Sequence record: MK327931.1
Strand: one strand, 5' to 3'
Source: Escherichia phage vB_EcoM_G17
Length of the DNA: 64,000 nucleotides
Notes under the pieces: model-generated
Seen by the model: the letters and a program-made list of their open reading frames with translations, nothing else
The model's database searches: none
Told to the model about the DNA's origin: nothing
Position numbers and translations under genes: made by a program
Part shown: positions 15,773-56,303 of the stretch, piece after piece
Layout: every line of letters begins with the position of its first letter
How positions within the stretch are numbered: the first letter of the stretch is position 1

Positions 15773-17641
15773 TTATTTGTGCTGAATACGCTCACAACAC
15801 TCTTGTTGTTTGCCTTTATTGAATCCACGCGAAGAAGGATTACCCAAGTAACCAGAAACACGACGAATCACTGAGATTGTCTTCTCATTACGATTATCAC
15901 ATACCGGACAGTGGAAACCATGTTTATCTACACTGAACTCACCCTGGAAGCCACATTCATAACAATGGTCAACTGGTTGGTTAATACCAAAATATGGTAT
16001 CTTAGTGTACGCATAGTTAACTAATGTTTCAAGTGCTTGAATGTTGTTTGCTAAGTTTGGAGATTCAACATAACTGATGTTTCCACCGTTACTTAGGTAA
16101 GCAAACCCTTCTTCATAACTCCATTTATCAAATGGAGAACTTTCTACCCATACTGGTTGATGGAAGGAATTTGTGATGTAATCACGTTTTAGTACTGAAG
16201 GATATTTTGCTTCAATGCAACGTGCAAATTTATAACAAAGCGACTCTGCTGGAGTTCCATATAGACTAAAAGCAATATTACTTTCTTTTTTGAACTCATC
16301 ACATTTTACTTTCATATAATTCAGTACTGACATACAAAACTCCTTACTGATAGAACCAGTGAGGATTTCTGAACATTCAACAAGACCAACATAACCAATA
16401 CTAATACTAGCATAACCATTGTAAAATAGCTTGTCAATGGTTTCTTCTGCACCTAAACGTGCTAATGCACCTTCCATGAACAAAATTGGATTCTGCTTCG
16501 CTTTAGTGCCTTTTAAACGCTCCACACGGTTCATCTGAGCACGATATGCAATATTCATGTGCTCGTCTATCTTATCAAAAAACTCTCCATCAGAAGCACT
16601 CTCAAGAGCAATTAGAGGTAAATTGATAGAAACTACGCCTAAATTGAAACGACCGTTGTATTGTTCATTTCCATTTGAATCTTCCCATTTTCCTAAGAAT
16701 GAACGACAGCCCATCGGTGTTACAGCAGTACTACTACTTCCAGTCACTTTGTGATTTAATGGAACTGAAACAAAGTCTGGGTAGATTCGTTTTGATGCAC
16801 AACGCATAGCTAACTGTTTAAGGTCATAATTACTATCATTGGTATTCATGTTTATACCATCTTGTAAAAAGAAAATTACTTTAGGAAACACTGGAGTAAT
16901 CTTATCTTTACCTAAACCATTCTCATGAACTTTTAAGTACTGTTCAGTGATTAATTTACCAAATTTAGAAGTATTAAGCCCTAAACTAAGAGAAATGAAT
17001 GCAGCTTGTCCATTAGTGCTAATCATTGAATTAGTCTGGTAAAGTAATGTTTGACATCCATCGTATACTTCTTTTCGTAATTCTTCTTCAATGAACTCAT
17101 CACTTAGATTATATTTCTTTTGTTTTTCTAACAGCTTATCCCATGACTTTTGGACGTAAGGTTCAAGACCAACGTCAATATGAGCCAACGATTGTCCACC
17201 GTACTGGGAACTGGCAACAGCTTGGACAATTTGTGTCAGTACTGTGCAAGCTACACTGAAACTTTTTGGTTCTTCAATTTTAGCACAACCAATAGTGAAG
17301 CCGTTTTTAAGCATATCAGGATAGTTAACCAAGCAACAATTGGTCAATGGGCTAATATAGTAATCTAAATCATGAATATGACCATATCCATCATTATGCC
17401 ATTGCATTAACTCGGTGGGAATAACATCTTGTGAATAATGCTTAGATAGAATACCTGCTAGTAAATCTCTATGTGTATTGACGCATTTTGCATCTTTATT
17501 AGCGTTTTCATTAGTAAGATCAGTATTACTCTGATTTAGGAAATTTGTTACATCGGTATATAATTTATCTAATTGCATTGTACATTCCTTGTATTTTGAA
17601 ATCATCTGGGGGTGAAGATATTTAATATCACCAGACAACAT
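15773..17641 (-). CDS. nrdD: anaerobic ribonucleoside-triphosphate reductase (class III, glycyl-radical enzyme)
   Basis: 622 aa; C-terminal glycyl-radical motif RVSGYLG and Cys cluster (CYECGFQ...CPVCDN); directly upstream of nrdG. Confidence 0.9.
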   Translation of the reverse strand: MLSGDIKYLHPQMISKYKECTMQLDKLYTDVTNFLNQSNTDLTNENANKDAKCVNTHRDLLAGILSKHYSQDVIPTELMQWHNDGYGHIHDLDYYISPLTNCCLVNYPDMLKNGFTIGCAKIEEPKSFSVACTVLTQIVQAVASSQYGGQSLAHIDVGLEPYVQKSWDKLLEKQKKYNLSDEFIEEELRKEVYDGCQTLLYQTNSMISTNGQAAFISLSLGLNTSKFGKLITEQYLKVHENGLGKDKITPVFPKVIFFLQDGINMNTNDSNYDLKQLAMRCASKRIYPDFVSVPLNHKVTGSSSTAVTPMGCRSFLGKWEDSNGNEQYNGRFNLGVVSINLPLIALESASDGEFFDKIDEHMNIAYRAQMNRVERLKGTKAKQNPILFMEGALARLGAEETIDKLFYNGYASISIGYVGLVECSEILTGSISKEFCMSVLNYMKVKCDEFKKESNIAFSLYGTPAESLCYKFARCIEAKYPSVLKRDYITNSFHQPVWVESSPFDKWSYEEGFAYLSNGGNISYVESPNLANNIQALETLVNYAYTKIPYFGINQPVDHCYECGFQGEFSVDKHGFHCPVCDNRNEKTISVIRRVSGYLGNPSSRGFNKGKQQECCERIQHK

Positions 17642-17666
17642 TATAGCGTCAGAACAGGTTATTTCT

Positions 17667-17682
17667 CTTGACCTATATCAAG
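17667..17682 (-). promoter_or_regulatory. inverted repeat upstream of nrdD (possible operator or 5'-UTR hairpin)
   Basis: CTTGA-N6-TCAAG about 30 nt upstream of the nrdD start; core TTGAC-N4-ATCAA is one mismatch from the FNR half-site consensus TTGAT-N4-ATCAA. Confidence 0.2.
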
Positions 17683-17716
17683 GAAAAGTCACATTGCTTT
17701 TTATTTGCACAAATAG

Positions 17717-17744
17717 AAAAAGCACCACAAGGGTGCTTTTAAAG
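17717..17744. terminator. bidirectional terminator-like hairpin
   Basis: Stem AAAAGCACC/GGTGCTTTT with 5-nt loop, A-rich on one side and T-rich on the other. Confidence 0.5.
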
Positions 17745-17841
17745 TACTGCTAATATAACAACTGCCCAAATTAGCAGTAATACATTGGTTGGTGCGGAAA
17801 AAAGCATATATGCAGCAAGTGCACTGCAACCTATGACAAGT

Positions 17842-18078
17842 TTAGCTAGTCTCATCTGGACTCCATGTAATAGTTACTGTGAACGTCCCTTCTTGAAAAC
17901 CAAACTCATCTTGTGGGATTTGTTCAGCTAATGGGTTAAATCTTGAATCGAAGGCTTCATGCACATCTCTCTGAATATCATAGAGACTTTCACCATCGTA
18001 TTCTTTTTTAAAGATTTCATTCTGCATTGATACGTAACGACCCTCGTATTCTGTCTGGATAGCCATCAAATAGTTCAA
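17842..18078 (-). CDS. hypothetical protein (start probably internal)
   Basis: ORF; track start overlaps upstream gene by 62 nt. Confidence 0.4.
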   Translation of the reverse strand: MNYLMAIQTEYEGRYVSMQNEIFKKEYDGESLYDIQRDVHEAFDSRFNPLAEQIPQDEFGFQEGTFTVTITWSPDETS

Positions 18079-23609: not shown

Positions 23610-24167
23610 TTAGCTCCCTTTGTATTGATGTTTACGTTTAGTACTGTATTTCCAGCCAGTACTATGTCTTGTTCTGATATCGTCCCAATACGATGGTAAT
23701 GAACGCATCTTACGTCTTCCACGTATATCAGGTTCCCCCTCATCCTTCAGTACTGCACAAGCCATACGACGCTCTTGTTGTGTCTTAGGACGCTTGTATC
23801 GGGAGTGGTTATGTTTGTACATATACGAACGCTTATGTCGCCATTCCGTATCACGAGCTTTACGTTTATGTTCCCAGTACTCATTATAGAGTATCATGTA
23901 TTCACCCATAAGTAAATCAGGAGATACAAGTAATCCTTTTTCAGTACAAAGATAATAACCCACAAACTTTTCTGGAAACATTTCGTAATAGAAACGGTTC
24001 TTCCAAAATGTTTCACGATTCTTTTTGTTGAATTCAGCTAAATCGAATTTCATCTTACTGTGGAAACGGTCTATACCGTCATGTTCCGCAATGTACTCTA
24101 ACAGATTATCAATAATCTCAACTTTACCAGAATCGTGATACAACGTAAATGTTTGGTCAAAAAACAT
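23610..24167 (-). CDS. hypothetical protein with strongly basic C-terminal tail
   Basis: 185 aa; C-terminal third rich in R/K/H; AAAGGAG SD upstream. Confidence 0.5.
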   Translation of the reverse strand: MFFDQTFTLYHDSGKVEIIDNLLEYIAEHDGIDRFHSKMKFDLAEFNKKNRETFWKNRFYYEMFPEKFVGYYLCTEKGLLVSPDLLMGEYMILYNEYWEHKRKARDTEWRHKRSYMYKHNHSRYKRPKTQQERRMACAVLKDEGEPDIRGRRKMRSLPSYWDDIRTRHSTGWKYSTKRKHQYKGS

Positions 24168-24261
24168 ATGAAATCTCCTTTAAGTTAAAATAACCTAATG
24201 GAAAGTCATTCTTCCTTTAATACATGTTCTCATGATTTGTTCCTTTTGTCAAGATATAGAT

Positions 24262-24289
24262 ATAAAAAATCCCTGCCAAAAGACAGGGA
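24262..24289 (-). terminator. rho-independent terminator-like hairpin
   Basis: Stem TCCCTG/CAGGGA with 8-nt loop, followed on minus strand by T6. Confidence 0.45.
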
Positions 24290-24393
24290 CGAAAAACTGA
24301 AATAACACATGGAGTTCTTTTTAATTTAATAAAAAGTATTATTATTCTTATAAAAGTATTTATTAAGAACTCCACAATATGTCTTCAAATGAA

Positions 24394-24582
24394 TCAAAAA
24401 CCTTTCTGAGCTACTAGTTCACGGTACTGTGCACGAGTTAGTACACCTTGTTTGCGTAGAGCTTGAAGACCGGATAGGGTTTCACTCTTACGTTGTTCGT
24501 ACATACGTTGTTCTTTAGATTGAATAACTTTCTCTTTCTTAACTTTTGCTACTGGTTCTTTTTTCTTAGGTTGTTTAGCCAT
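24394..24582 (-). CDS. small basic protein
   Basis: 62 aa, Lys-rich N-terminus. Confidence 0.4.
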   Translation of the reverse strand: MAKQPKKKEPVAKVKKEKVIQSKEQRMYEQRKSETLSGLQALRKQGVLTRAQYRELVAQKGF

Positions 24583-24650
24583 TTTATATCTCCTTCTGTA
24601 TTATGATAACAACATTATATCATGTATGGGACATAATGTCCCATACAATA

Positions 24651-26090
24651 TTACATATTTTCTTCAGCAAATTCTGCAAGTGGTGAACGAACAACACCTT
24701 CTAGTTCGATGACACGACAACCTGCCCAATCTTTAAACTTCTCAGTTACATATGTCAAACCACTGTTAACAGGACTAATAAACTTACTGTCAATCTGACT
24801 CAAGTTACCCATAATTACTACTTTACAGTTTAATCCTGCTCGTGTCAAGATTGTTTTGGCTTGTGCAGGTGTAATGTTTTGGAATTCATCAACTACTAGA
24901 ATAGTGTTGGTGAATGAACGTCCACGTACAAAGTTTAGTGCTTTAAATTGAATAACATTACGTTTCATAATCTCTTCAATACTACCTTGAGGGTTAGCAT
25001 CATCTTTATGAAGAAACTCTAACGCGTCAATTGCGGCTCCACAGAATGGAATCACTTTTTCTGCTTCTGAACCTGGCAAGAAACCAATATCTTCAAACTG
25101 TGAGTCTTGAGTTTTAGAGAAGATGATTCGGTCGTATTTACGTTTTTCCAGTACTAATTCTAATGCAGTCGCAATCGTAATTAGTGTTTTACCAGTACCA
25201 GCAGAACCTAGCAGTACTGTTAGATGTACATCAGGATCGAGAATACTGTTGATGGCGAGTGCTTGTTGGATATTCTTTGCTTTAATATCCCATACTTTAG
25301 CACGTAAAGCTACTGATTGTCCAATATCTTGGAATACCAAAATATCTTCTGGTGTTAGTGTTCCATCATCTTCCTCAATTGCTGATTGACCTTCGTACAC
25401 AAATAATACGTCTGCATCATCATATAGATAATCCCCGATGCATAGATTTTGTGGGAGCAAATGCTCAATCAAGCTTTTGGAAATGTAATGATACAAACGA
25501 CGACCAACTTGTTCGGATTGAATATTAGTATTGGTTAAGTTGCTATATACTTCCCAAAAATTGATTTCCAAATGGTGTTGACCAATGTGAATCAAATCAC
25601 TATCACCAATAACAATATCATGGCGATAATCTTGTACCTCGACACCATAACTTAGTGCTTTGATACGCATGTTGATATCACGAGTTACCAGTACTGATTC
25701 TGTTGCTAAAGCTACCAGAATGATTTTATCATCAGGTACTGTGCTTTTGAGAAGGGTTTGAACTTTCTCTTCTGAACCTTTAGTACGAATTAGTGCTTCA
25801 GCTTCTTCGTTTGTAATAACAAACAATTTGCTATCAGGATTCATATTGGTATGAACATCAGCAATATTAACACCAGTACTACTAATCTCATCATGTGATG
25901 CATCTGCAATAATTGCTTCAATGTTACGAATAGCAACACGAGCATCGCGTGAAACATCTACATTACGACTCTTAATTGAATCCAATTCTTCCAGTACTGT
26001 AAATGGTAGAATGATTGCAGCACCATCAAAAGCAATAGATGCATTAGGGTCAGATAGTAGTACGTTTGTGTCAATTGTATATTTTTTCAT
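24651..26090 (-). CDS. phoH: PhoH-like ATPase with N-terminal PIN-like domain
   Basis: Walker A LLGSAGTGKTLITIA; overall PhoH/YlaK-type architecture. Confidence 0.85.
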   Translation of the reverse strand: MKKYTIDTNVLLSDPNASIAFDGAAIILPFTVLEELDSIKSRNVDVSRDARVAIRNIEAIIADASHDEISSTGVNIADVHTNMNPDSKLFVITNEEAEALIRTKGSEEKVQTLLKSTVPDDKIILVALATESVLVTRDINMRIKALSYGVEVQDYRHDIVIGDSDLIHIGQHHLEINFWEVYSNLTNTNIQSEQVGRRLYHYISKSLIEHLLPQNLCIGDYLYDDADVLFVYEGQSAIEEDDGTLTPEDILVFQDIGQSVALRAKVWDIKAKNIQQALAINSILDPDVHLTVLLGSAGTGKTLITIATALELVLEKRKYDRIIFSKTQDSQFEDIGFLPGSEAEKVIPFCGAAIDALEFLHKDDANPQGSIEEIMKRNVIQFKALNFVRGRSFTNTILVVDEFQNITPAQAKTILTRAGLNCKVVIMGNLSQIDSKFISPVNSGLTYVTEKFKDWAGCRVIELEGVVRSPLAEFAEENM

Positions 26091-41534: not shown

Positions 41535-41591
41535 TTCAACTTCTCCCTATTGGTGATGTAATCAAATTATATCACCGAATTCTGATACGTC

Positions 41592-41897
41592 TCATGATAT
41601 TCGCATTTCATCTATATATAATGAACATGATTCAGAATTATCGTCTAAACTTAAACCTAAATCGACCATCAAACCGCAATGCGTTCCCCAGAATTTCTTT
41701 ATGTATAGTTTTTTGCTATTATTACCTAAATCATAAACATATTCATTTTTAAATATACTTTTTAATTCTTCACATATACATTTTATTATCTTCATTACTT
41801 GATTATGATATTCGTATGGTATTCCATCAAGTTCGTTAATTATTAATGCAAAACCATCATCATAGTACTTAAGTTTATTGAATGTTTGTATATCCAT
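41592..41897 (-). CDS. hypothetical protein
   Basis: 101-aa ORF. Confidence 0.45.
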   Translation of the reverse strand: MDIQTFNKLKYYDDGFALIINELDGIPYEYHNQVMKIIKCICEELKSIFKNEYVYDLGNNSKKLYIKKFWGTHCGLMVDLGLSLDDNSESCSLYIDEMRIS

Positions 41898-43222: not shown

Positions 43223-44155
43223 TTAGAAATTTCCTTCAGCCACTTGGAAAACTTTCAACCCAAGTAGCTTACGCCACATGAATACAACTTGATCGCGGTC
43301 ATCATATACCTTTTTAACATCGTAATGATCAACCACATTTTTCATGTACAGGTCGAATTTTACAACATCATCAGGACGTTTATCATCGATATCTCGCATA
43401 AACAATGCATCGTAAGGAACACCCCAATTCTTAAGCCACTGTTCGGTATCAGCACGACACCCTTCAGTACGCCCACTCATGACGATAATCTTGCGTTTAT
43501 GAAAAACTGCTTCAGCGATAATAGACAAAATAACTTCTTCATCAGGTGTATCCTGAAGAACAGTACTTTCATCGTAAGGATTACGACCCCATTTATGAGC
43601 AAGAGTTCCATCGATATCAACGATGATAGCAGCTTCGCGTGAATTACCATAGTAACCAATGTGTAATGCCTTACTATAATAGTACGTATCTGCCATTGTG
43701 TCAATGATATCATCTTGTACTGAACGCTCACGCTGGAGGTTATATTTCTTACAAAGTTTTACGAACTCTTTAATCTTAAAGAATTCATGAACATCTGCAC
43801 CACGGTCTTCATTAGGTACAAAATCATCATAGAAGTTCTTTTCTTTGTAATCATAACCATTATCTTTAGCCCATACTTTCCAGAGATTACGGAAATGTTG
43901 TTTAAGGTTTGTATCGGATATGATGATGTTCCAACCATTCTCTGCTGCTGAATTTGCTGCACTGAACTGTAAATTAGTTACGTACTGCTCATTAGCATCG
44001 TTGAATTTGTAAGCATCATGTGACCCAGCCATAGATTCACGAATATCATCACGGTTGATGTTGATAGTCTTGGATTTGGCATTTTTAATTTCTTGAACTG
44101 CCCATGTGGTTTTACCACACCCAGGTAATCCAACTGTTAGTGTAATAGTTGGCAT
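43223..44155 (-). CDS. pseT: polynucleotide 5'-kinase / 3'-phosphatase (T4 Pnk-like)
   Basis: N-terminal P-loop LTVGLPGCGKTTWA and C-terminal HAD-type phosphatase motif IVDIDGTLA. Confidence 0.85.
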   Translation of the reverse strand: MPTITLTVGLPGCGKTTWAVQEIKNAKSKTININRDDIRESMAGSHDAYKFNDANEQYVTNLQFSAANSAAENGWNIIISDTNLKQHFRNLWKVWAKDNGYDYKEKNFYDDFVPNEDRGADVHEFFKIKEFVKLCKKYNLQRERSVQDDIIDTMADTYYYSKALHIGYYGNSREAAIIVDIDGTLAHKWGRNPYDESTVLQDTPDEEVILSIIAEAVFHKRKIIVMSGRTEGCRADTEQWLKNWGVPYDALFMRDIDDKRPDDVVKFDLYMKNVVDHYDVKKVYDDRDQVVFMWRKLLGLKVFQVAEGNF

Positions 44156-44167
44156 TATTACTCCTTG

Positions 44168-45251: not shown

Positions 45252-46394
45252 CTAAAAATCCTTTAGTACAATTTTCATGTATTTTATAAGAGTCTCTTTG
45301 TAATCAACTTTCTTATTGTTATACATTGCAAAGGCCAAGCCCTGACGATTCAGTTCATTAGTTAAACACTCCTGAACCTTCATTGCGAATTCCTTTCGCT
45401 CCAAGTGCTTGTGTTCCTTGACGAAGCTTTCTACTTCATCTTGTAATGCATTATAGCACGAAAATACCAATTGTTCCATTCTTAATATCTTTTGCATAGC
45501 ATATTCATCAGTACTGAACAATTGTTTTAAATCATCACTTGAACCATTTAATACTGCTTCATATAAATGAGAATCAATAATAATACTATCTTTTGTAAGA
45601 TGTAATGAACTGTACCAGTCAGTCTTTATTTTACACATTGTCCCATTATTTAGGATGCACACAAAACCCTCAATATCAAGCATTTTATGAACTTCCTCCA
45701 CGCTTTCACGGAAGGTATTTCGTACCGGAAAAGTGTGATGAATATCTTTTCCAGTCATATTAGTACTGTACTGTGCAAGACATGGAAACTTATCACGTAG
45801 TGCTTTACCACATAGCAACTCACCACTCACACGATGACGAACGTTCAGTACAAACAGTTGTTCTACCTGATATGGTAATACAATTCGGTACTCTGGGCTT
45901 GTATACTCCATATTAACTGTGTAACCTAAACGTTCCGCTTCGTCGATGTACTGATACAAATTCTGGTTCTCGTTAATAAGTCGAGTACTGTTAATCGCAT
46001 GGTCAGAATACAATGCAGTATGTGATTTACAACGAATCTCACCATCATTATCACGGTAAGTACTGATAATCGAACCATCCAACTTAGGCATCACTACCGC
46101 AATGTCATCGCATGTGGTGTTAGCAGGGAACATTGTAGCAGGATTCTCGTAAGCATTGAAGAACTTTTTCATTGTACGTGCTGCACAACGTATCATTTCA
46201 CCTTCTTCATCAATTTCCCACATAGAGCCACGGGTTTCCAACGCATTTGGTTGCATGAAATCAGTGTATGATGCTAGACGATAACTGAATACACGATACG
46301 TGCCACCAGCAGGACTTTTATGATCCACATAAAAGAATGCATCGTTTGTATTACATAAGTGCATTAAATCTTCATATATTTGCAAAAGGGTCAT
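45252..46394 (-). CDS. rnlA: RNA ligase 1 (T4 Rnl1-like)
   Basis: Closely parallels T4 Rnl1 as recalled: FFYVDHKSPAGGTYRVFSYRLASYTDF, ALETRGSMWEI, KKFFNAYENP, lysine motif PKLDGSI. Confidence 0.85.
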   Translation of the reverse strand: MTLLQIYEDLMHLCNTNDAFFYVDHKSPAGGTYRVFSYRLASYTDFMQPNALETRGSMWEIDEEGEMIRCAARTMKKFFNAYENPATMFPANTTCDDIAVVMPKLDGSIISTYRDNDGEIRCKSHTALYSDHAINSTRLINENQNLYQYIDEAERLGYTVNMEYTSPEYRIVLPYQVEQLFVLNVRHRVSGELLCGKALRDKFPCLAQYSTNMTGKDIHHTFPVRNTFRESVEEVHKMLDIEGFVCILNNGTMCKIKTDWYSSLHLTKDSIIIDSHLYEAVLNGSSDDLKQLFSTDEYAMQKILRMEQLVFSCYNALQDEVESFVKEHKHLERKEFAMKVQECLTNELNRQGLAFAMYNNKKVDYKETLIKYMKIVLKDF

Positions 46395-53154: not shown

Positions 53155-53688
53155 TTATTTCCTCATGTATTTTATAACGTCTTCAAATAATTGTATTTTT
53201 AAGTCCTCGTCATTTCCAGGTAAAAACTCACGAAAACTATCAAAATCTTCATTTTTTGCGAAGTTACGCATTTGTGTTGAGCTATATTGACTTACATTAC
53301 GGTCAATACCTGCCTGAATTGCTTTTATACTACAAAAATTATACAACTTACCATTGTACATGTCAAGAGTTTTTTGAAAAGAATCAATACGGTCAGAACC
53401 ACAAATGAAAAGAACATCTAAGTACTTTCCATCCAGTTCTCTCATTATATCAAATAGATTGTCTTCTGTGTAGATGTTCTCTTGCACTGAAGGATAGAAT
53501 CCCTCTGTATAATACATTTTTAGTTCAGGTGGGAGTGGGTTTTTTATATTGTCAGTACTGGTGCTTAGATATATTTTTAAATCAGCATTGTACTGTTCTT
53601 GTAATGTTTTGGCCTTTTCAAAAACTAAACCATGTCCACGATGTACAGGATTAATACGACCAAACGTTAATACACATGTTTCTTTCAT
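53155..53688 (-). CDS. HxGH-type nucleotidyltransferase (cytidylyltransferase superfamily; NMN adenylyltransferase- or PPAT-like)
   Basis: N-terminal FGRINPVHRGH (HxGH) and downstream SSTQMR (ISSTxxR-like). Confidence 0.65.
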   Translation of the reverse strand: MKETCVLTFGRINPVHRGHGLVFEKAKTLQEQYNADLKIYLSTSTDNIKNPLPPELKMYYTEGFYPSVQENIYTEDNLFDIMRELDGKYLDVLFICGSDRIDSFQKTLDMYNGKLYNFCSIKAIQAGIDRNVSQYSSTQMRNFAKNEDFDSFREFLPGNDEDLKIQLFEDVIKYMRK

Positions 53689-54206
53689 AAATTCTTCATC
53701 ACCAATCCGAGAGATTTAAGATAATTAATTTTAGCAGTGGTTAAGTACTTATCCAGTACTATCAGACACGAAGGAAATGGTGCTGAATCTGTTTTCTTAT
53801 CGGGTTCTTCTGGTATACCAAATCGTAATCTTCCCTTAATAAAACAAATACAATCACATATTTTAGCAGCATAATCCTGAAAAGCAATTGTGTCGGTTCT
53901 TGAGGGTACAAGAATAACTACAGTTGCCCCGTTATTATATGCATCTACTGCTTTAGATAACCAAGTTTTCAAATCACTGTATGGTGGATTCAACCAAACT
54001 ATATTATTTCCCCAATCCTGTGATAGTGAATCATCTTCTGGAGTGAAAAAATTATCACACAATGCAGTCTCATCAACACAAGCAGCATCAAGTGTAAATC
54101 CCCATAACTCATCCAAATCTTCAAAGAAATCTTTGGGAGTTGTCCAGTTATCTTTTCCAGTACTGAAATGTACTGAATGTTTTTTCGAAGCATCCTTCTT
54201 CGACAT
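53685..54206 (-). CDS. DNA N6-adenine methyltransferase (phage Dam-like family)
   Basis: Catalytic NPPYS motif with WTTP, LDAA and TVVILVPSRTDT context. Confidence 0.7.
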   Translation of the reverse strand: MSKKDASKKHSVHFSTGKDNWTTPKDFFEDLDELWGFTLDAACVDETALCDNFFTPEDDSLSQDWGNNIVWLNPPYSDLKTWLSKAVDAYNNGATVVILVPSRTDTIAFQDYAAKICDCICFIKGRLRFGIPEEPDKKTDSAPFPSCLIVLDKYLTTAKINYLKSLGLVMKNL

Positions 54207-54222
54207 TATATAATTCCTTTTG

Positions 54223-54843
54223 TTAGAGACAGTTGTGTACTATCTTATCAAAAGTACTACTGTCAATGTTATATTCATATAAAAATTTAAAATGTGAACC
54301 GTAACGCATCATCAGATTAAACTCTTCTTCAGTATTGAACTTGTAATCATGAATAGTCTCAGGGGTACATTTTAAACCCAAGAACTCTATAATTTCAGAT
54401 GTTACATCATATCCTGAATTGAAGTATTTAACCCAAACACATTTTCCTTGTGGGTTGTATTTTCTATATTCTCCTTCTAGTTCTCCTTTAATAATATGAG
54501 CCTTAACACTTATTGAATTATTACTATATCTTTCTTCAAAATAATTACCATACTGGGCTTTTGATATTGTTGGTTTTTGAGTAGGAAGTAATTTAACTGA
54601 AGTTACTTCAATTCCATTTTGTAATTCCTTTATATAAGAAATGCATCCTTTTTCTTTAATAACCACATATCCAGTAAAGATATCTTCGTCTTGTGATTGA
54701 TTAATGCAATCATCAAAATTCAAAGTTTTATAAGTAACAGTTTTTTCTTTTCTAATAAATGCCATCATTATTCCTATGGAAACATCAATGAATATACGTG
54801 ACGTTGATTGCATCAACATCAGTAGAATTATCATGCTACGCAT
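54223..54843 (-). CDS. hypothetical protein (true start probably an internal Met)
   Basis: 206-aa ORF with Met-rich hydrophobic N-terminal extension. Confidence 0.5.
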   Translation of the reverse strand: MRSMIILLMLMQSTSRIFIDVSIGIMMAFIRKEKTVTYKTLNFDDCINQSQDEDIFTGYVVIKEKGCISYIKELQNGIEVTSVKLLPTQKPTISKAQYGNYFEERYSNNSISVKAHIIKGELEGEYRKYNPQGKCVWVKYFNSGYDVTSEIIEFLGLKCTPETIHDYKFNTEEEFNLMMRYGSHFKFLYEYNIDSSTFDKIVHNCL

Positions 54844-55384
54844 GTCTAATTCTACACAAGTACTATTTTCTTTTAATTAATATTGACGGGGTTTGCTTGA
54901 GCATATTTCATCCCCCCGCAGGGGAAAGAACAAAAAAATTTGACGCTGGTGGCCTTCACATAGTTCATATCACGAATTCTCTTACGAGACGAAAGCGGGT
55001 TGCTCTGTTTCTCTCTATCGCGGTTCTTGTAGCAACGGTCGTCGGTCTTAAACATCCCGACACATAATACAAATACCATATGACCAGTACTTGTATTTGA
55101 TTTCACAAAATTTGGACGCAACTATATTGTATAATTCCGACCGCATATTTCTTATGAAATCTCCCTTAGATAATTGGTAAGGTGCGATCCTTATATGTCT
55201 ATCGAGGAACTCTCTTTATCCTATTGGAGTTCTTTATACAGCCGCATTGCCGTGAGTGGTTCAAACTATGCCATCATCTAACGGGTTTCATCTGCTGTTC
55301 GTACTGAAAGGACTACTCATCTACCCTCTACATTTTCGAGTGGATTAGGCTTTTAATCATTTCCTTATGGGAACCTTTCAGGAT

Positions 55385-55420
55385 TAAAAAAAGGTGACTA
55401 ACATATTATGTTGTCACCTT
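55385..55420 (-). terminator. rho-independent terminator
   Basis: Long stem AAGGTGAC(t)AACAT/ATGTTGTCACCTT followed on minus strand by T7. Confidence 0.65.
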
Positions 55421-55448
55421 ATATTATATCATTAACTTATCATTTGTC

Positions 55449-56303
55449 TCAGTTATATTCGGTTTTTTCTGTGAAATTTGTTAGTATATCAACACTAAAA
55501 CTTCGAATAACCTCAATCCTGCTTGGCATGAAACGATGTTTATTTTTAATATACAACTCATCATCTTCAATAAAAGACGTAAAAATAAATGTCATATCTT
55601 CACGTGGAATTTGTAAAATATCACACATTTCATTTGCCGATGCTACTGGTGAATCGTTGTAGTACTGAGAGTATGCACTAGATTGGCGACCGATTATAAT
55701 AGAATTTCTGATTAGAAAATTACTACAGTACTGAAAATCTTTGTAGTACTTTTCAATAATGTAAGGCATAAGTGCTTCTTTCACGTCTTCATAACCATTA
55801 GTACTATCAATTGCTATACAGTAATCTTCACGTTCTTTTTTCTCATGATGGTAATCATAAACATACTCAAAGAATGAATTTTTATTTAATGAATCATTTA
55901 AACCAACTGACCCACTATAGTATGATTTTCTATCATTCATTCGATCATCTGGGCATGATGCATACATAGAAGTGTCATGTGATGATGTACCAATATAAAT
56001 TTTCTTAGTAATATGATTATACGCTATGTAATCATAATCTTGAACTCCAGTCAGCATTAACTGGAACATTAAATCATCAGGAACATCAATTAACGGGTAC
56101 TCAAACTTCGAATATCTACTGCGGCAGAAGTTCTTTTCAAATGCTCGGTATGCGATAAAATCTTTTAGATTTTTACAAGATTCATGTTCATGAGCACTAC
56201 TGCTACGTACATTGACATTAGTCGATGTGCAATATCCATCCGAATCTTCGGTGAAGTTACCAGCATAATCCTTATTGTAGTCAACGATTAGATAAAGTTT
56301 CAT
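55449..56303 (-). CDS. hypothetical protein
   Basis: 284-aa ORF. Confidence 0.55.
   Translation of the reverse strand: MKLYLIVDYNKDYAGNFTEDSDGYCTSTNVNVRSSSAHEHESCKNLKDFIAYRAFEKNFCRSRYSKFEYPLIDVPDDLMFQLMLTGVQDYDYIAYNHITKKIYIGTSSHDTSMYASCPDDRMNDRKSYYSGSVGLNDSLNKNSFFEYVYDYHHEKKEREDYCIAIDSTNGYEDVKEALMPYIIEKYYKDFQYCSNFLIRNSIIIGRQSSAYSQYYNDSPVASANEMCDILQIPREDMTFIFTSFIEDDELYIKNKHRFMPSRIEVIRSFSVDILTNFTEKTEYN

Follow-up and report, generated by a model that had tools for sequence, protein, structure and literature searches.

To our knowledge, only few classes of RNA in bacteria and phages are both larger than 400 nucleotides (nt) and built around multiple pseudoknots, for example ribosomal RNA, RNase P RNA, transfer-messenger RNA (tmRNA), self-splicing introns, OLE, GOLLD, and ROOL. 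Here, we analyzed a 64,000-nt stretch of DNA from Escherichia phage vB_EcoM_G17 (sequence record MK327931.1; the whole stretch is referred to as the window, and coordinates are window positions), and in particular its interval 54844-55448. Comparison with homologous sequences indicates that this interval is almost certainly a minus-strand gene for a real, conserved, and strand-specific structured RNA of a new family. In kind, ROOL and GOLLD (RF03087, RF01998) appear to be the closest known RNAs. Like the RNA described here, they are several hundred nt long with many helices and pseudoknots, associated with phages, non-coding, and encoded in a transcription unit of their own. However, ROOL and GOLLD usually lie beside tRNA genes and are single-copy, whereas the RNA here has four to five diverged and spaced copies and no tRNA neighbour. 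As no match in sequence or structure was observed even at E <= 10, membership in either family is not supported.

The RNA also resembles tmRNA and RNase P RNA in having a similar size (350-400 nt) and several pseudoknots, but lacks a tRNA-like end, a tag reading frame, and any Rfam match. In phage PA5oct, RNA sequencing (RNA-seq) defined four unannotated non-coding RNAs of 236-619 nt that are free of open reading frames (ORFs), ncRNA001-004, two of which are highly expressed throughout infection (PMC7318152). PA5oct is distantly related to the Rak2 group of phages considered below, and ncRNA001, 002, and 004 are not detectably homologous to the RNA here when their regions are searched, with filters off, with a covariance model of its 3' domain (R1; best score 12.7 bits). 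Fragments of the RNA may be among the >10,000 candidate structured RNAs that have been catalogued for viruses, the motifs of which span 29-151 nt only (PMC10690425), and no description of it was found in the literature searched.

The fold was derived from a MAFFT alignment of 36 non-redundant homologues. RNAalifold predicted 74 pairs, of which 46 are supported by compensatory changes at both positions, and a pairwise covariation scan added three pseudoknots as well as a helix closing a variable insert. The final model comprises 83 pairs in 17 helices, three of which are pseudoknots. In this model, 95.6% of pairings are canonical, compared to 38-44% when the 3' partners were slid by 1-3 columns. 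Both sides had changed in 58 pairs (600 cells), and none of 500 shuffles reached the observed values. The 3' domain alone showed the same behaviour (94.7% paired versus 34-48% slid). Counts of 247 G-U versus 26 A-C combinations, and 95.6% pairing on the minus versus 88.0% on the plus strand, were obtained for the 83-pair model, and this excess of G-U over A-C indicates that the folded strand is the minus strand of the window. An earlier note, made from the letters of the window, had listed a structured non-coding RNA among several candidates for this interval, and it is this candidate that is borne out by covariation, strand-specific G-U pairing, a conserved promoter, and the lack of a conserved ORF.

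All elements of the RNA are given on the minus strand. The 5' domain (55100-55348) consists of P1 (55348-55338/55328-55321), P2 (55316-55312/55305-55301), P3 (55298-55294/55242-55238), P4 (55284-55281/55253-55250), P5 (55232-55227/55212-55207), P6 (55193-55190/55181-55178), and P7 (55160-55158/55102-55100); helices 1-9 are 89-100% canonical, and most have changed on both sides. The 3' domain (54939-55101), which R1 recognizes in the window with 133.6 bits (E = 3.4e-25), consists of P8 (55097-55085/55078-55066), P9 (55062-55059/55044-55040), P10 (55022-55018/54975-54971), P11 (55015-55011/54995-54991), and P12 (54988-54986/54981-54979).

Pseudoknot A (54999-55036) pairs GUUGC (55036-55032) with GCAAC (55003-54999) and crosses P10 and P11. 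It is 100% canonical, with four fixed pairs and one variable pair (C-G in 24 sequences, U-A in 10, A-U in 1, and G-C in 1). Pseudoknot B (54964-55084) connects the P8 loop (55084-55079) to a strand 110 nt downstream (54969-54964). All six of its pairs have changed on both sides at 99.5% pairing, with variants including UUCAUG/CAUGAA, AUUGUA/UACAAU, and UCGAAU/AUUCGA. This pairing could form within one molecule or between molecules; in ROOL and GOLLD, covariation that had been read as 'pseudoknots' included contacts between molecules (PMC12286853), and the same could hold for pseudoknot B. Pseudoknot C (55168-55221) joins GGA of the P5 loop (55221-55219) to UCU (55170-55168), is 88.9% paired, and occurs in the variants AGC/GCU, UAC/GUA, AUC/GAU, AUA/UAU, CAC/GUG, and GAC/GUU. 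It overlaps the first base of the UAAGGGAG block (55161-55168), in which AAGGGA is invariant in 36 out of 36 sequences (columns A265-A270).

In most paralogues, a conserved module of ~28 nt, GUACAAUAUAGAUCCGUCCAAAAUU, is located centrally in the RNA, and in others it occupies the P12 loop (columns 400-430 versus 567-597); a copy of the RNA from an E. coli island, described below, carries it at both places. Such variation would be expected if the position of the module in the three-dimensional fold counts for more than its position in the sequence, and the swap recalls the peripheral elements of RNase P types A and B. The invariant UCA at the 3' side could have its partner in a UGA at the 5' end or in the UGA within GAUGAG. 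Two further structural candidates were dropped: a hammerhead-like GAUGAG...CGAA motif, of which the would-be invariant positions vary and for which Rfam gave no match, and a long-range GAUGA/UCAUC helix, which is without covariation.

The RNA is preceded by the promoter TGAGAC-N14-TGATATAAT (55451-55423, minus strand). Its -35-like element TGAGAC (55446-55451; family consensus TG(A/G)A(A/C)(C/A)) lies 17 nt upstream of the extended -10 element TGATATAAT (55423-55431), which gave 10/12 matches in the scan and has TG before the hexamer. A TATAAT-like -10 is present in 93 of the 98 distinct family members for which the upstream sequence is long enough (TATAAT in 80, TATACT in 9, and TACAAT in 4); 86 of these 93 have the upstream TG of an extended -10, and the TG(A/G)AAC element is found 17 nt upstream. 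The pattern TG[AG][AG]A[CT]-N12-14-TGnTATAAT occurs three times in the window, always on the minus strand, versus 0.085 expected. In phages CBB and GAP32, a 'TGAAACG' promoter class has been described in which TGAAAC(G) replaces TTGACA at -35 and the -10 is sigma70-like (PMC5259590), and the promoter of the RNA has the features that define this class. The two further promoters of the class in the window are located at 45450-45478 and 41566-41594, and TGnTATAAT as such occurs 14 times on the minus and twice on the plus strand.

A mere 67 nt of the minus strand (55386-55452) hold the stop codon of the upstream gene, the -35 and -10 of the RNA, and the terminator hairpin of the upstream gene (55386-55420; 13 bp with one bulge, followed by U7). 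As placed from the position of the -10, transcription is predicted to start at ~55416, within the 5' arm of this terminator, so that transcripts arriving from upstream should terminate there. The strong terminator that the earlier note had pointed out as a border of the interval is real, but because it ends the gene at 55449-56303, it sits at the start and not at the end of the minus-strand element. Syntenic copies from other genera retain the hairpin, although the sequence of its stem differs (alignment columns 13-47), and weak terminator-like Rfam matches in the region are confined to it. The 3' end was placed from a hairpin and U-tract. In the window copy, CGUCAAA plus U7 (54932-54945), with a short GGC...GUC hairpin, is the presumed 3' end and would be a weak terminator, whereas most paralogues have a strong hairpin-U7/8 terminator directly after the conserved ...AUCAUCGUCAG. 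The predicted primary transcript (54932-55416) accordingly has ~485 nt, or ~455 nt if the 5' hairpin is outside the mature RNA.

The region matches Escherichia phage Sharanji at 100% identity and phage 121Q, of the genus Asteriusvirus, at 99.5%; both are Rak2-like jumbo myoviruses of ~350 kb. In total, blastn detected it in 61-70 phage records, with identities between 66% and 100%. Alignments with distant genera covered the non-coding part alone (66-76%) and not the flanking genes. These distant matches comprised Salmonella phages Munch and 7t3, Klebsiella phage fENko-Kae01, Erwinia phages, Serratia phage BF, Yersinia phages fHe-Yen9-03 and fHe-Yen9-04, Cronobacter phage GAP32, Pectobacterium phage CBB, and Xanthomonas phages XbC2 and XaC1. 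Across genera, the site is syntenic and consists of a cytidylyltransferase-like gene, a Dam methylase gene, a hypothetical gene, a gap of 605-740 nt, and another hypothetical gene; for fHe-Yen9-04 and XaC1, the best blastn match was in another gene context. Conservation thus spans at least six phage genera, along with many metagenomic contigs. Exact-pattern scans of IMG/VR and metagenome contigs, filtered by R1, yielded ~100 distinct members; apart from fragments, almost all of the contigs that carry them have 230-371 kb.

Further copies are absent from the window as judged by blastn and R1 (a 19.5-bit match at 44054-44159 is noise), and complete genomes hold several: four in Asteriusvirus, to which the phage studied here belongs, and five in Mimasvirus, Eneladusvirus, and relatives. 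Phage 121Q has four, at ~90.5, 193.0, 247.7, and 326.9 kb, the fourth of which was found with a loose 5'-domain pattern in viral contigs that, among the matches listed, otherwise returned mostly chance hits. For GAP32 and BF, pattern scans gave four copies each and blastn five places per record, and five copies each are present in fHe-Yen9-04 and in an uncultivated 366 kb genome (UViG_3300012988_000001). Paralogues cluster by genomic position across genera and not by genome, which indicates that the duplications are older than the split of the genera and that Asteriusvirus lost one copy. In other genera, the copy lost in Asteriusvirus is located ~40-50 kb upstream of the Dam-linked copy. All copies within one genome share the same strand. 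The 121Q copy at ~326.6-326.9 kb and its orthologue are antisense to both adjacent genes, showing that the module can be a stand-alone transcription unit.

The gap holds no recognizable protein-coding gene. Its reading frames, 89 amino acids (aa) on the plus and 82 aa on the minus strand, gave no match in a Pfam search. In the 36 homologues, the longest stop-free frames range from 38 to 113 codons and differ in place and frame, no ORF is conserved, and indels in the alignment are not multiples of three. A short peptide from GGGGGGAUGAAA was considered and rejected, as its frame is broken by a 1-nt indel and is not conserved. In line with this, the earlier note had seen only short ORFs and no tRNA in the interval, and ARAGORN found 0 tRNA or tmRNA genes in the window. 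At the gathering threshold, none of the 4227 models of Rfam 15, including ROOL, GOLLD, OLE, HEARO, RNase P, tmRNA, group I/II introns, 6S, and riboswitches, matched anywhere in the window, and at E <= 10 the segment 54700-55550 gave only terminator-like or snoRNA noise (15-27 bits versus cut-offs of 40-82). A tmRNA was rejected based on the ARAGORN result and the lack of a conserved open frame; a plus-strand likeness to the 5' end of tmRNA is on the wrong strand and occurs twice. A group I/II intron or its remnant was likewise discarded, given the intergenic syntenic site, the intact flanking genes, the RNA's own promoter, and the absence of an Rfam intron model match.

Conservation extends beyond the RNA. 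Downstream of its 3' end follows a conserved block (54881-54925, minus strand) with a G/C hairpin CCCCUGCGGGG (54925-54912), then GGAUGAAA, a spacer, and CCCCGUCAAUA (54891-54881). The block, CCCCUGCGGGGGG-AUGAAA...CAAAUCUCGUCAGUA, follows the RNA in every copy, even past strong terminators. The CCCCUGCGGGG hairpin shows no changes other than C to U, which preserve pairing as G-U on the minus strand, and GGGGGGATGAAA has exactly one occurrence in the window. The DNA downstream of the module is AT-rich in other genera and has one or two hairpins with variable stems and the conserved loop AACGNAGUGA; the loop motif was sought in the window and is absent there. These hairpins may serve the phages as a binding site for a protein or as a regulatory element. 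After them come TTGAC, a short hairpin, and GGCAAT just ahead of the next gene. In the window, the corresponding position between the RNA module and the next gene is taken by a hairpin GUAGAAUUAGACAUGCGUAGCAUGAUAAUUCUAC (54822-54855, minus strand).

The surroundings of the RNA are gene-dense. Among the ORFs with 80 aa or more in the window, 98 out of 99 run on the minus strand, and no stretch of the 64 kb without such an ORF is larger than 54843-55449 (the next-largest ORF-free gaps, 24167-24651 with 484 nt and 17641-18017 with 376 nt, had no Rfam match at the gathering threshold). The GC content of 54844-55448 is 0.382 compared to 0.333 for the window, so that the GC-richer non-coding island described by the earlier note is confirmed. 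GC content rises to 0.410 in the conserved core (54873-55353) and 0.436 in the 3' domain (54939-55101), and 200-nt windows gave 0.40-0.44 in the region versus 0.26-0.31 in the flanks. Windows of the same size average 0.333 (sd 0.030, z = 1.6), and 5.6% of them are equally GC-rich; the GC excess is therefore genuine yet modest, and not significant taken alone.

Upstream of the RNA, the minus-strand gene 55449-56303 encodes a 284-aa hypothetical protein, which is outside the RNA, has no Pfam match, and is syntenic in all genera. The downstream gene (54223-54768, minus strand) also encodes a hypothetical protein. Its ORF was listed with a start at 54843, where no Shine-Dalgarno sequence is present, and translation is most likely initiated at an ATG that follows AGGA, either at 54768 or at 54765. 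The left edge drawn by the earlier note thus probably has to be moved further left, and with this start the non-coding interval grows to ~680 nt. Beyond it follow the genes for the Dam methylase (53685-54206) and a cytidylyltransferase-like protein of 177 aa (53155-53688, minus strand, with weak PF01467 and PF06574 matches). The latter is labelled 'ribonucleotide reductase A' in 121Q, probably a mis-annotation.

Outside phage genomes, the complete module was detected in two of 5426 complete E. coli genomes, LR-29-1 (NZ_AP027515.1, 3478938-3479618; L349:11800-12480) and EEC_W5 (NZ_CM130020.1, 245139-245819), in identical form and with 72.6% identity to the window copy. It comprises promoter, core, terminator, and G-hairpin block, scores 136 bits with R1, and shares 80.6% identity with the Eneladusvirus paralogue at ~174.5 kb. 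The copy resides in a ~10 kb island between ybaA and ffs with a tyrosine integrase split by IS3, a serine recombinase, and a DuOB-DUF488-mSLOG/DUF4326 gene trio. In this island, the RNA is located upstream of three co-oriented genes with the terminator in between, and the island proteins adjoining it have no jumbo-phage homologues. In nine other E. coli genomes, the same site is occupied by a related island in which all that is left of the module core is a decayed 3' end (71% identity over 144 nt). Since the RNA core is missing from these related islands, the RNA is dispensable cargo of the island family. The remnant islands, in O68:H12 97.3 (L350:8920-9144) and eight others, keep a small upstream ORF, a promoter-like sequence TGTGATATAT, a hairpin-U terminator, and the decayed 3' block. 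A plasmid search gave no match. A pattern scan of GTDB returned 41 matches, all 41 of them chance by R1, and is uninformative on absence because it used a gap of N10-18 where N17-21 was needed; a family pattern with an adequate gap is GACCGTTG-N15-23-GAAA-N5-CAACCCG. The rarity of the module in E. coli, its position in a mobile island, and the 72.6% identity speak against an origin of the phage region from host DNA, as the earlier note had considered. A transfer between phage and island could have gone either way.

How might the RNA act? In the explanation that we favour, host RNA polymerase would produce the RNA as a discrete and abundant transcript in the early-to-middle phase of infection, from a promoter of the TG(A/G)AAC plus TGnTATAAT class wedged between the upstream stop codon and the terminator hairpin. 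The ~455-485 nt fold into at least 13 helices that the three pseudoknots lock together, and presumably end at the hairpin and U-tract. The RNA would then work in trans, either as a protein-binding scaffold or ribonucleoprotein, or as a self-assembling RNA like ROOL and GOLLD, and the paralogue-specific pseudoknot B would keep each paralogue folding or pairing with itself alone. Action in trans as such a discrete, compactly folded RNA is a tentative proposal, to which we grant slightly less than an even chance. Taken as a whole, an RNA gene whose product forms a trans-acting particle is the best explanation, and its chances of being correct are about balanced.

Several points weigh against this explanation. 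The structure was partly derived from the same alignment that was used to test it, and since many of the 36 sequences are orthologous, there are fewer independent substitutions than the cell counts suggest. The folding energy of the single sequence is no better than that of shuffles (z = -0.94). Furthermore, the predicted start of the syntenic copy inside a terminator hairpin is awkward, and both transcript ends as well as the abundance of the transcript are inferred. Finally, a trans-acting RNA leaves three features unexplained: the even spacing of the copies, the conserved block past the terminator in every copy, and the co-oriented gene that follows tightly downstream in 24 out of 29 copies.

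Even spacing is the starting point for the strongest of the alternatives, in which the module is a replication origin and a middle-type promoter drives the structured RNA as a primer or R-loop RNA. The origin would be formed jointly by the 3' end of the RNA, the block with the G-rich hairpin, the stretch of AT-rich DNA, and the hairpins downstream, and the four to five copies would be the origins of the 350 kb chromosome. In the 366 kb genome, the five copies are located at 41, 108, 188, 270, and 333 kb, with gaps of 66.8, 80.2, 81.4, 63.2, and 74.7 kb (63-81 kb apart; P = 3.6e-4 for the minimum gap of random points on a circle). That all copies of a genome are on one strand and that the module includes conserved post-terminator sequence, AT-rich DNA, and hairpins would fit such a function. 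The spacing is, however, less even in fHe-Yen9-04 (minimum gap 44 kb, P ~0.02) and for the four copies of 121Q (P = 0.05), and genomes that are syntenic do not count as independent. No inflection of the GC skew was seen at the element. As for the packaging signal that the earlier note had named together with a replication origin, a single pac site is not suggested by four to five dispersed copies.

Known origins offer partial models. In its architecture only, the locus resembles ColE1 RNA II together with its origin and pas hairpins, with a sigma70-type promoter ~500 nt upstream, a structured RNA of ~500 nt, a G-run/C-run near its 3' end, and hairpins downstream. ColE1 RNA II has no pseudoknotted core, and, unlike in ColE1, most paralogues of the RNA here have a strong intrinsic terminator between the core and the block downstream. 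The likeness to T4 oriF and oriG lies in the T4-related myoviruses, a phage promoter class that differs from sigma70 at -35, AT-rich DNA nearby, and several origins per genome; T4 has several R-loop origins, of which oriF and oriG comprise a middle promoter and an unwinding element, and the phages studied here have T4-like replication genes. T4 origin transcripts are short and unstructured, with the unwinding element directly after the promoter, and a fold with three pseudoknots and invariant unpaired bases is far more elaborate than known primer RNAs. In CBB, 11 of 18 'TGAAACG' promoters are located in a region containing DNA-synthesis genes (PMC5259590), which would suit an origin. The E. 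coli island keeps the whole module and could exploit the origin of a helper phage, while the RNA was lost from 9 of 11 related E. coli islands. On balance, a replication-origin module is unlikely, yet deserves to be taken seriously. We are similarly doubtful about a broader version, in which the evenly spaced, co-oriented modules would be RNA-primed replication origins or domain organisers of the 350 kb genome and the island would have captured one to amplify itself or to bait the phage machinery.

The genes behind the copies lead to another alternative, a cis-acting leader. Here, the nascent RNA would serve as a processive antiterminator similar to HK022 put/EAR, or as a very large riboswitch-like attenuator, polymerase would read through the following terminator, and each copy would head one long transcription unit. 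The order of promoter, RNA, terminator, and close co-oriented genes in the 24 of 29 copies agrees with this, as does the island RNA upstream of its three co-oriented genes. As with HK022 put and EAR, which are encoded just after the promoter and before terminators, action in cis only would explain why more than one copy, each on the coding strand, is needed. The terminal hairpin of the RNA and the terminator stem (GUCAG...CUGAC-U8) share the conserved CGUCAG in one paralogue group, a layout as in expression platforms, whereas the terminator is structurally independent of the RNA in other paralogue groups. Moreover, the orthologous copy with both neighbours antisense is conserved, and, as the phage has many other promoters and terminators, few transcription units would be served. 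Known antiterminator RNAs have 65-120 nt, no resemblance to the RNA here was found in sequence or structure, and no leader is known to come near 450 nt with three pseudoknots. We therefore rate a leader function as rather improbable.

Less probable still is a conflict RNA, i.e. a decoy, sponge, or bait, with the island having captured a copy to sense or jam Rak2-like phages, or alternatively a selfish mobile module. A complete copy (136 bits) in an integrase island with DuOB, DUF488, and mSLOG/DUF4326, which resemble genes of conflict systems, is in accordance with this idea, and the island copy is followed by a predicted membrane protein with neighbouring proteins that lack jumbo-phage homologues. 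Only two E. coli genomes carry it, however, while nine related islands hold a decayed remnant. Positions in phages are stably syntenic and not scattered, and target-site duplications or terminal repeats were not seen in the alignments, in which no systematic search for them was made.

The remaining explanations, coding or non-functional DNA, are barely credible even when taken together. Although most records leave the gap blank, some annotate 2-6 small 'hypothetical proteins' there, and the window has its frames of 89 and 82 aa; missed small protein-coding genes are nevertheless extremely improbable given shifting frames, indels not in threes, helix-compensating substitutions, and no Pfam match. 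Chance composition or decaying DNA without function, such as a host scrap or the remnant of an intron or homing endonuclease that the earlier note had proposed, could account for the modest GC excess, but is contradicted by covariation with structure-preserving changes over at least six genera, a conserved promoter, the intergenic site with its synteny across genera, and the lack of an intron model match, and its probability is next to nil.

The known classes of large RNA have, without exception, turned out to be core machines or have stayed puzzles, and the RNA described here would add a class. It is universal in cultivable Rak2-like jumbo phages of E. coli, Klebsiella, Salmonella, Erwinia, Yersinia, Serratia, Cronobacter, Pectobacterium, and Xanthomonas, and dozens of GenBank records leave the corresponding gaps of ~600 bp blank or fill them with spurious small ORFs. 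Its four to five anciently diverged paralogues provide rich covariation together with a natural experiment in specificity, and it is genetically tractable in E. coli K-12 phages. The presence of the RNA in a bacterial island points to a role in phage-host or phage-satellite conflict. For these phages, the finding makes it testable where and how a 350 kb chromosome starts replication, and how long one-directional gene arrays are transcribed.

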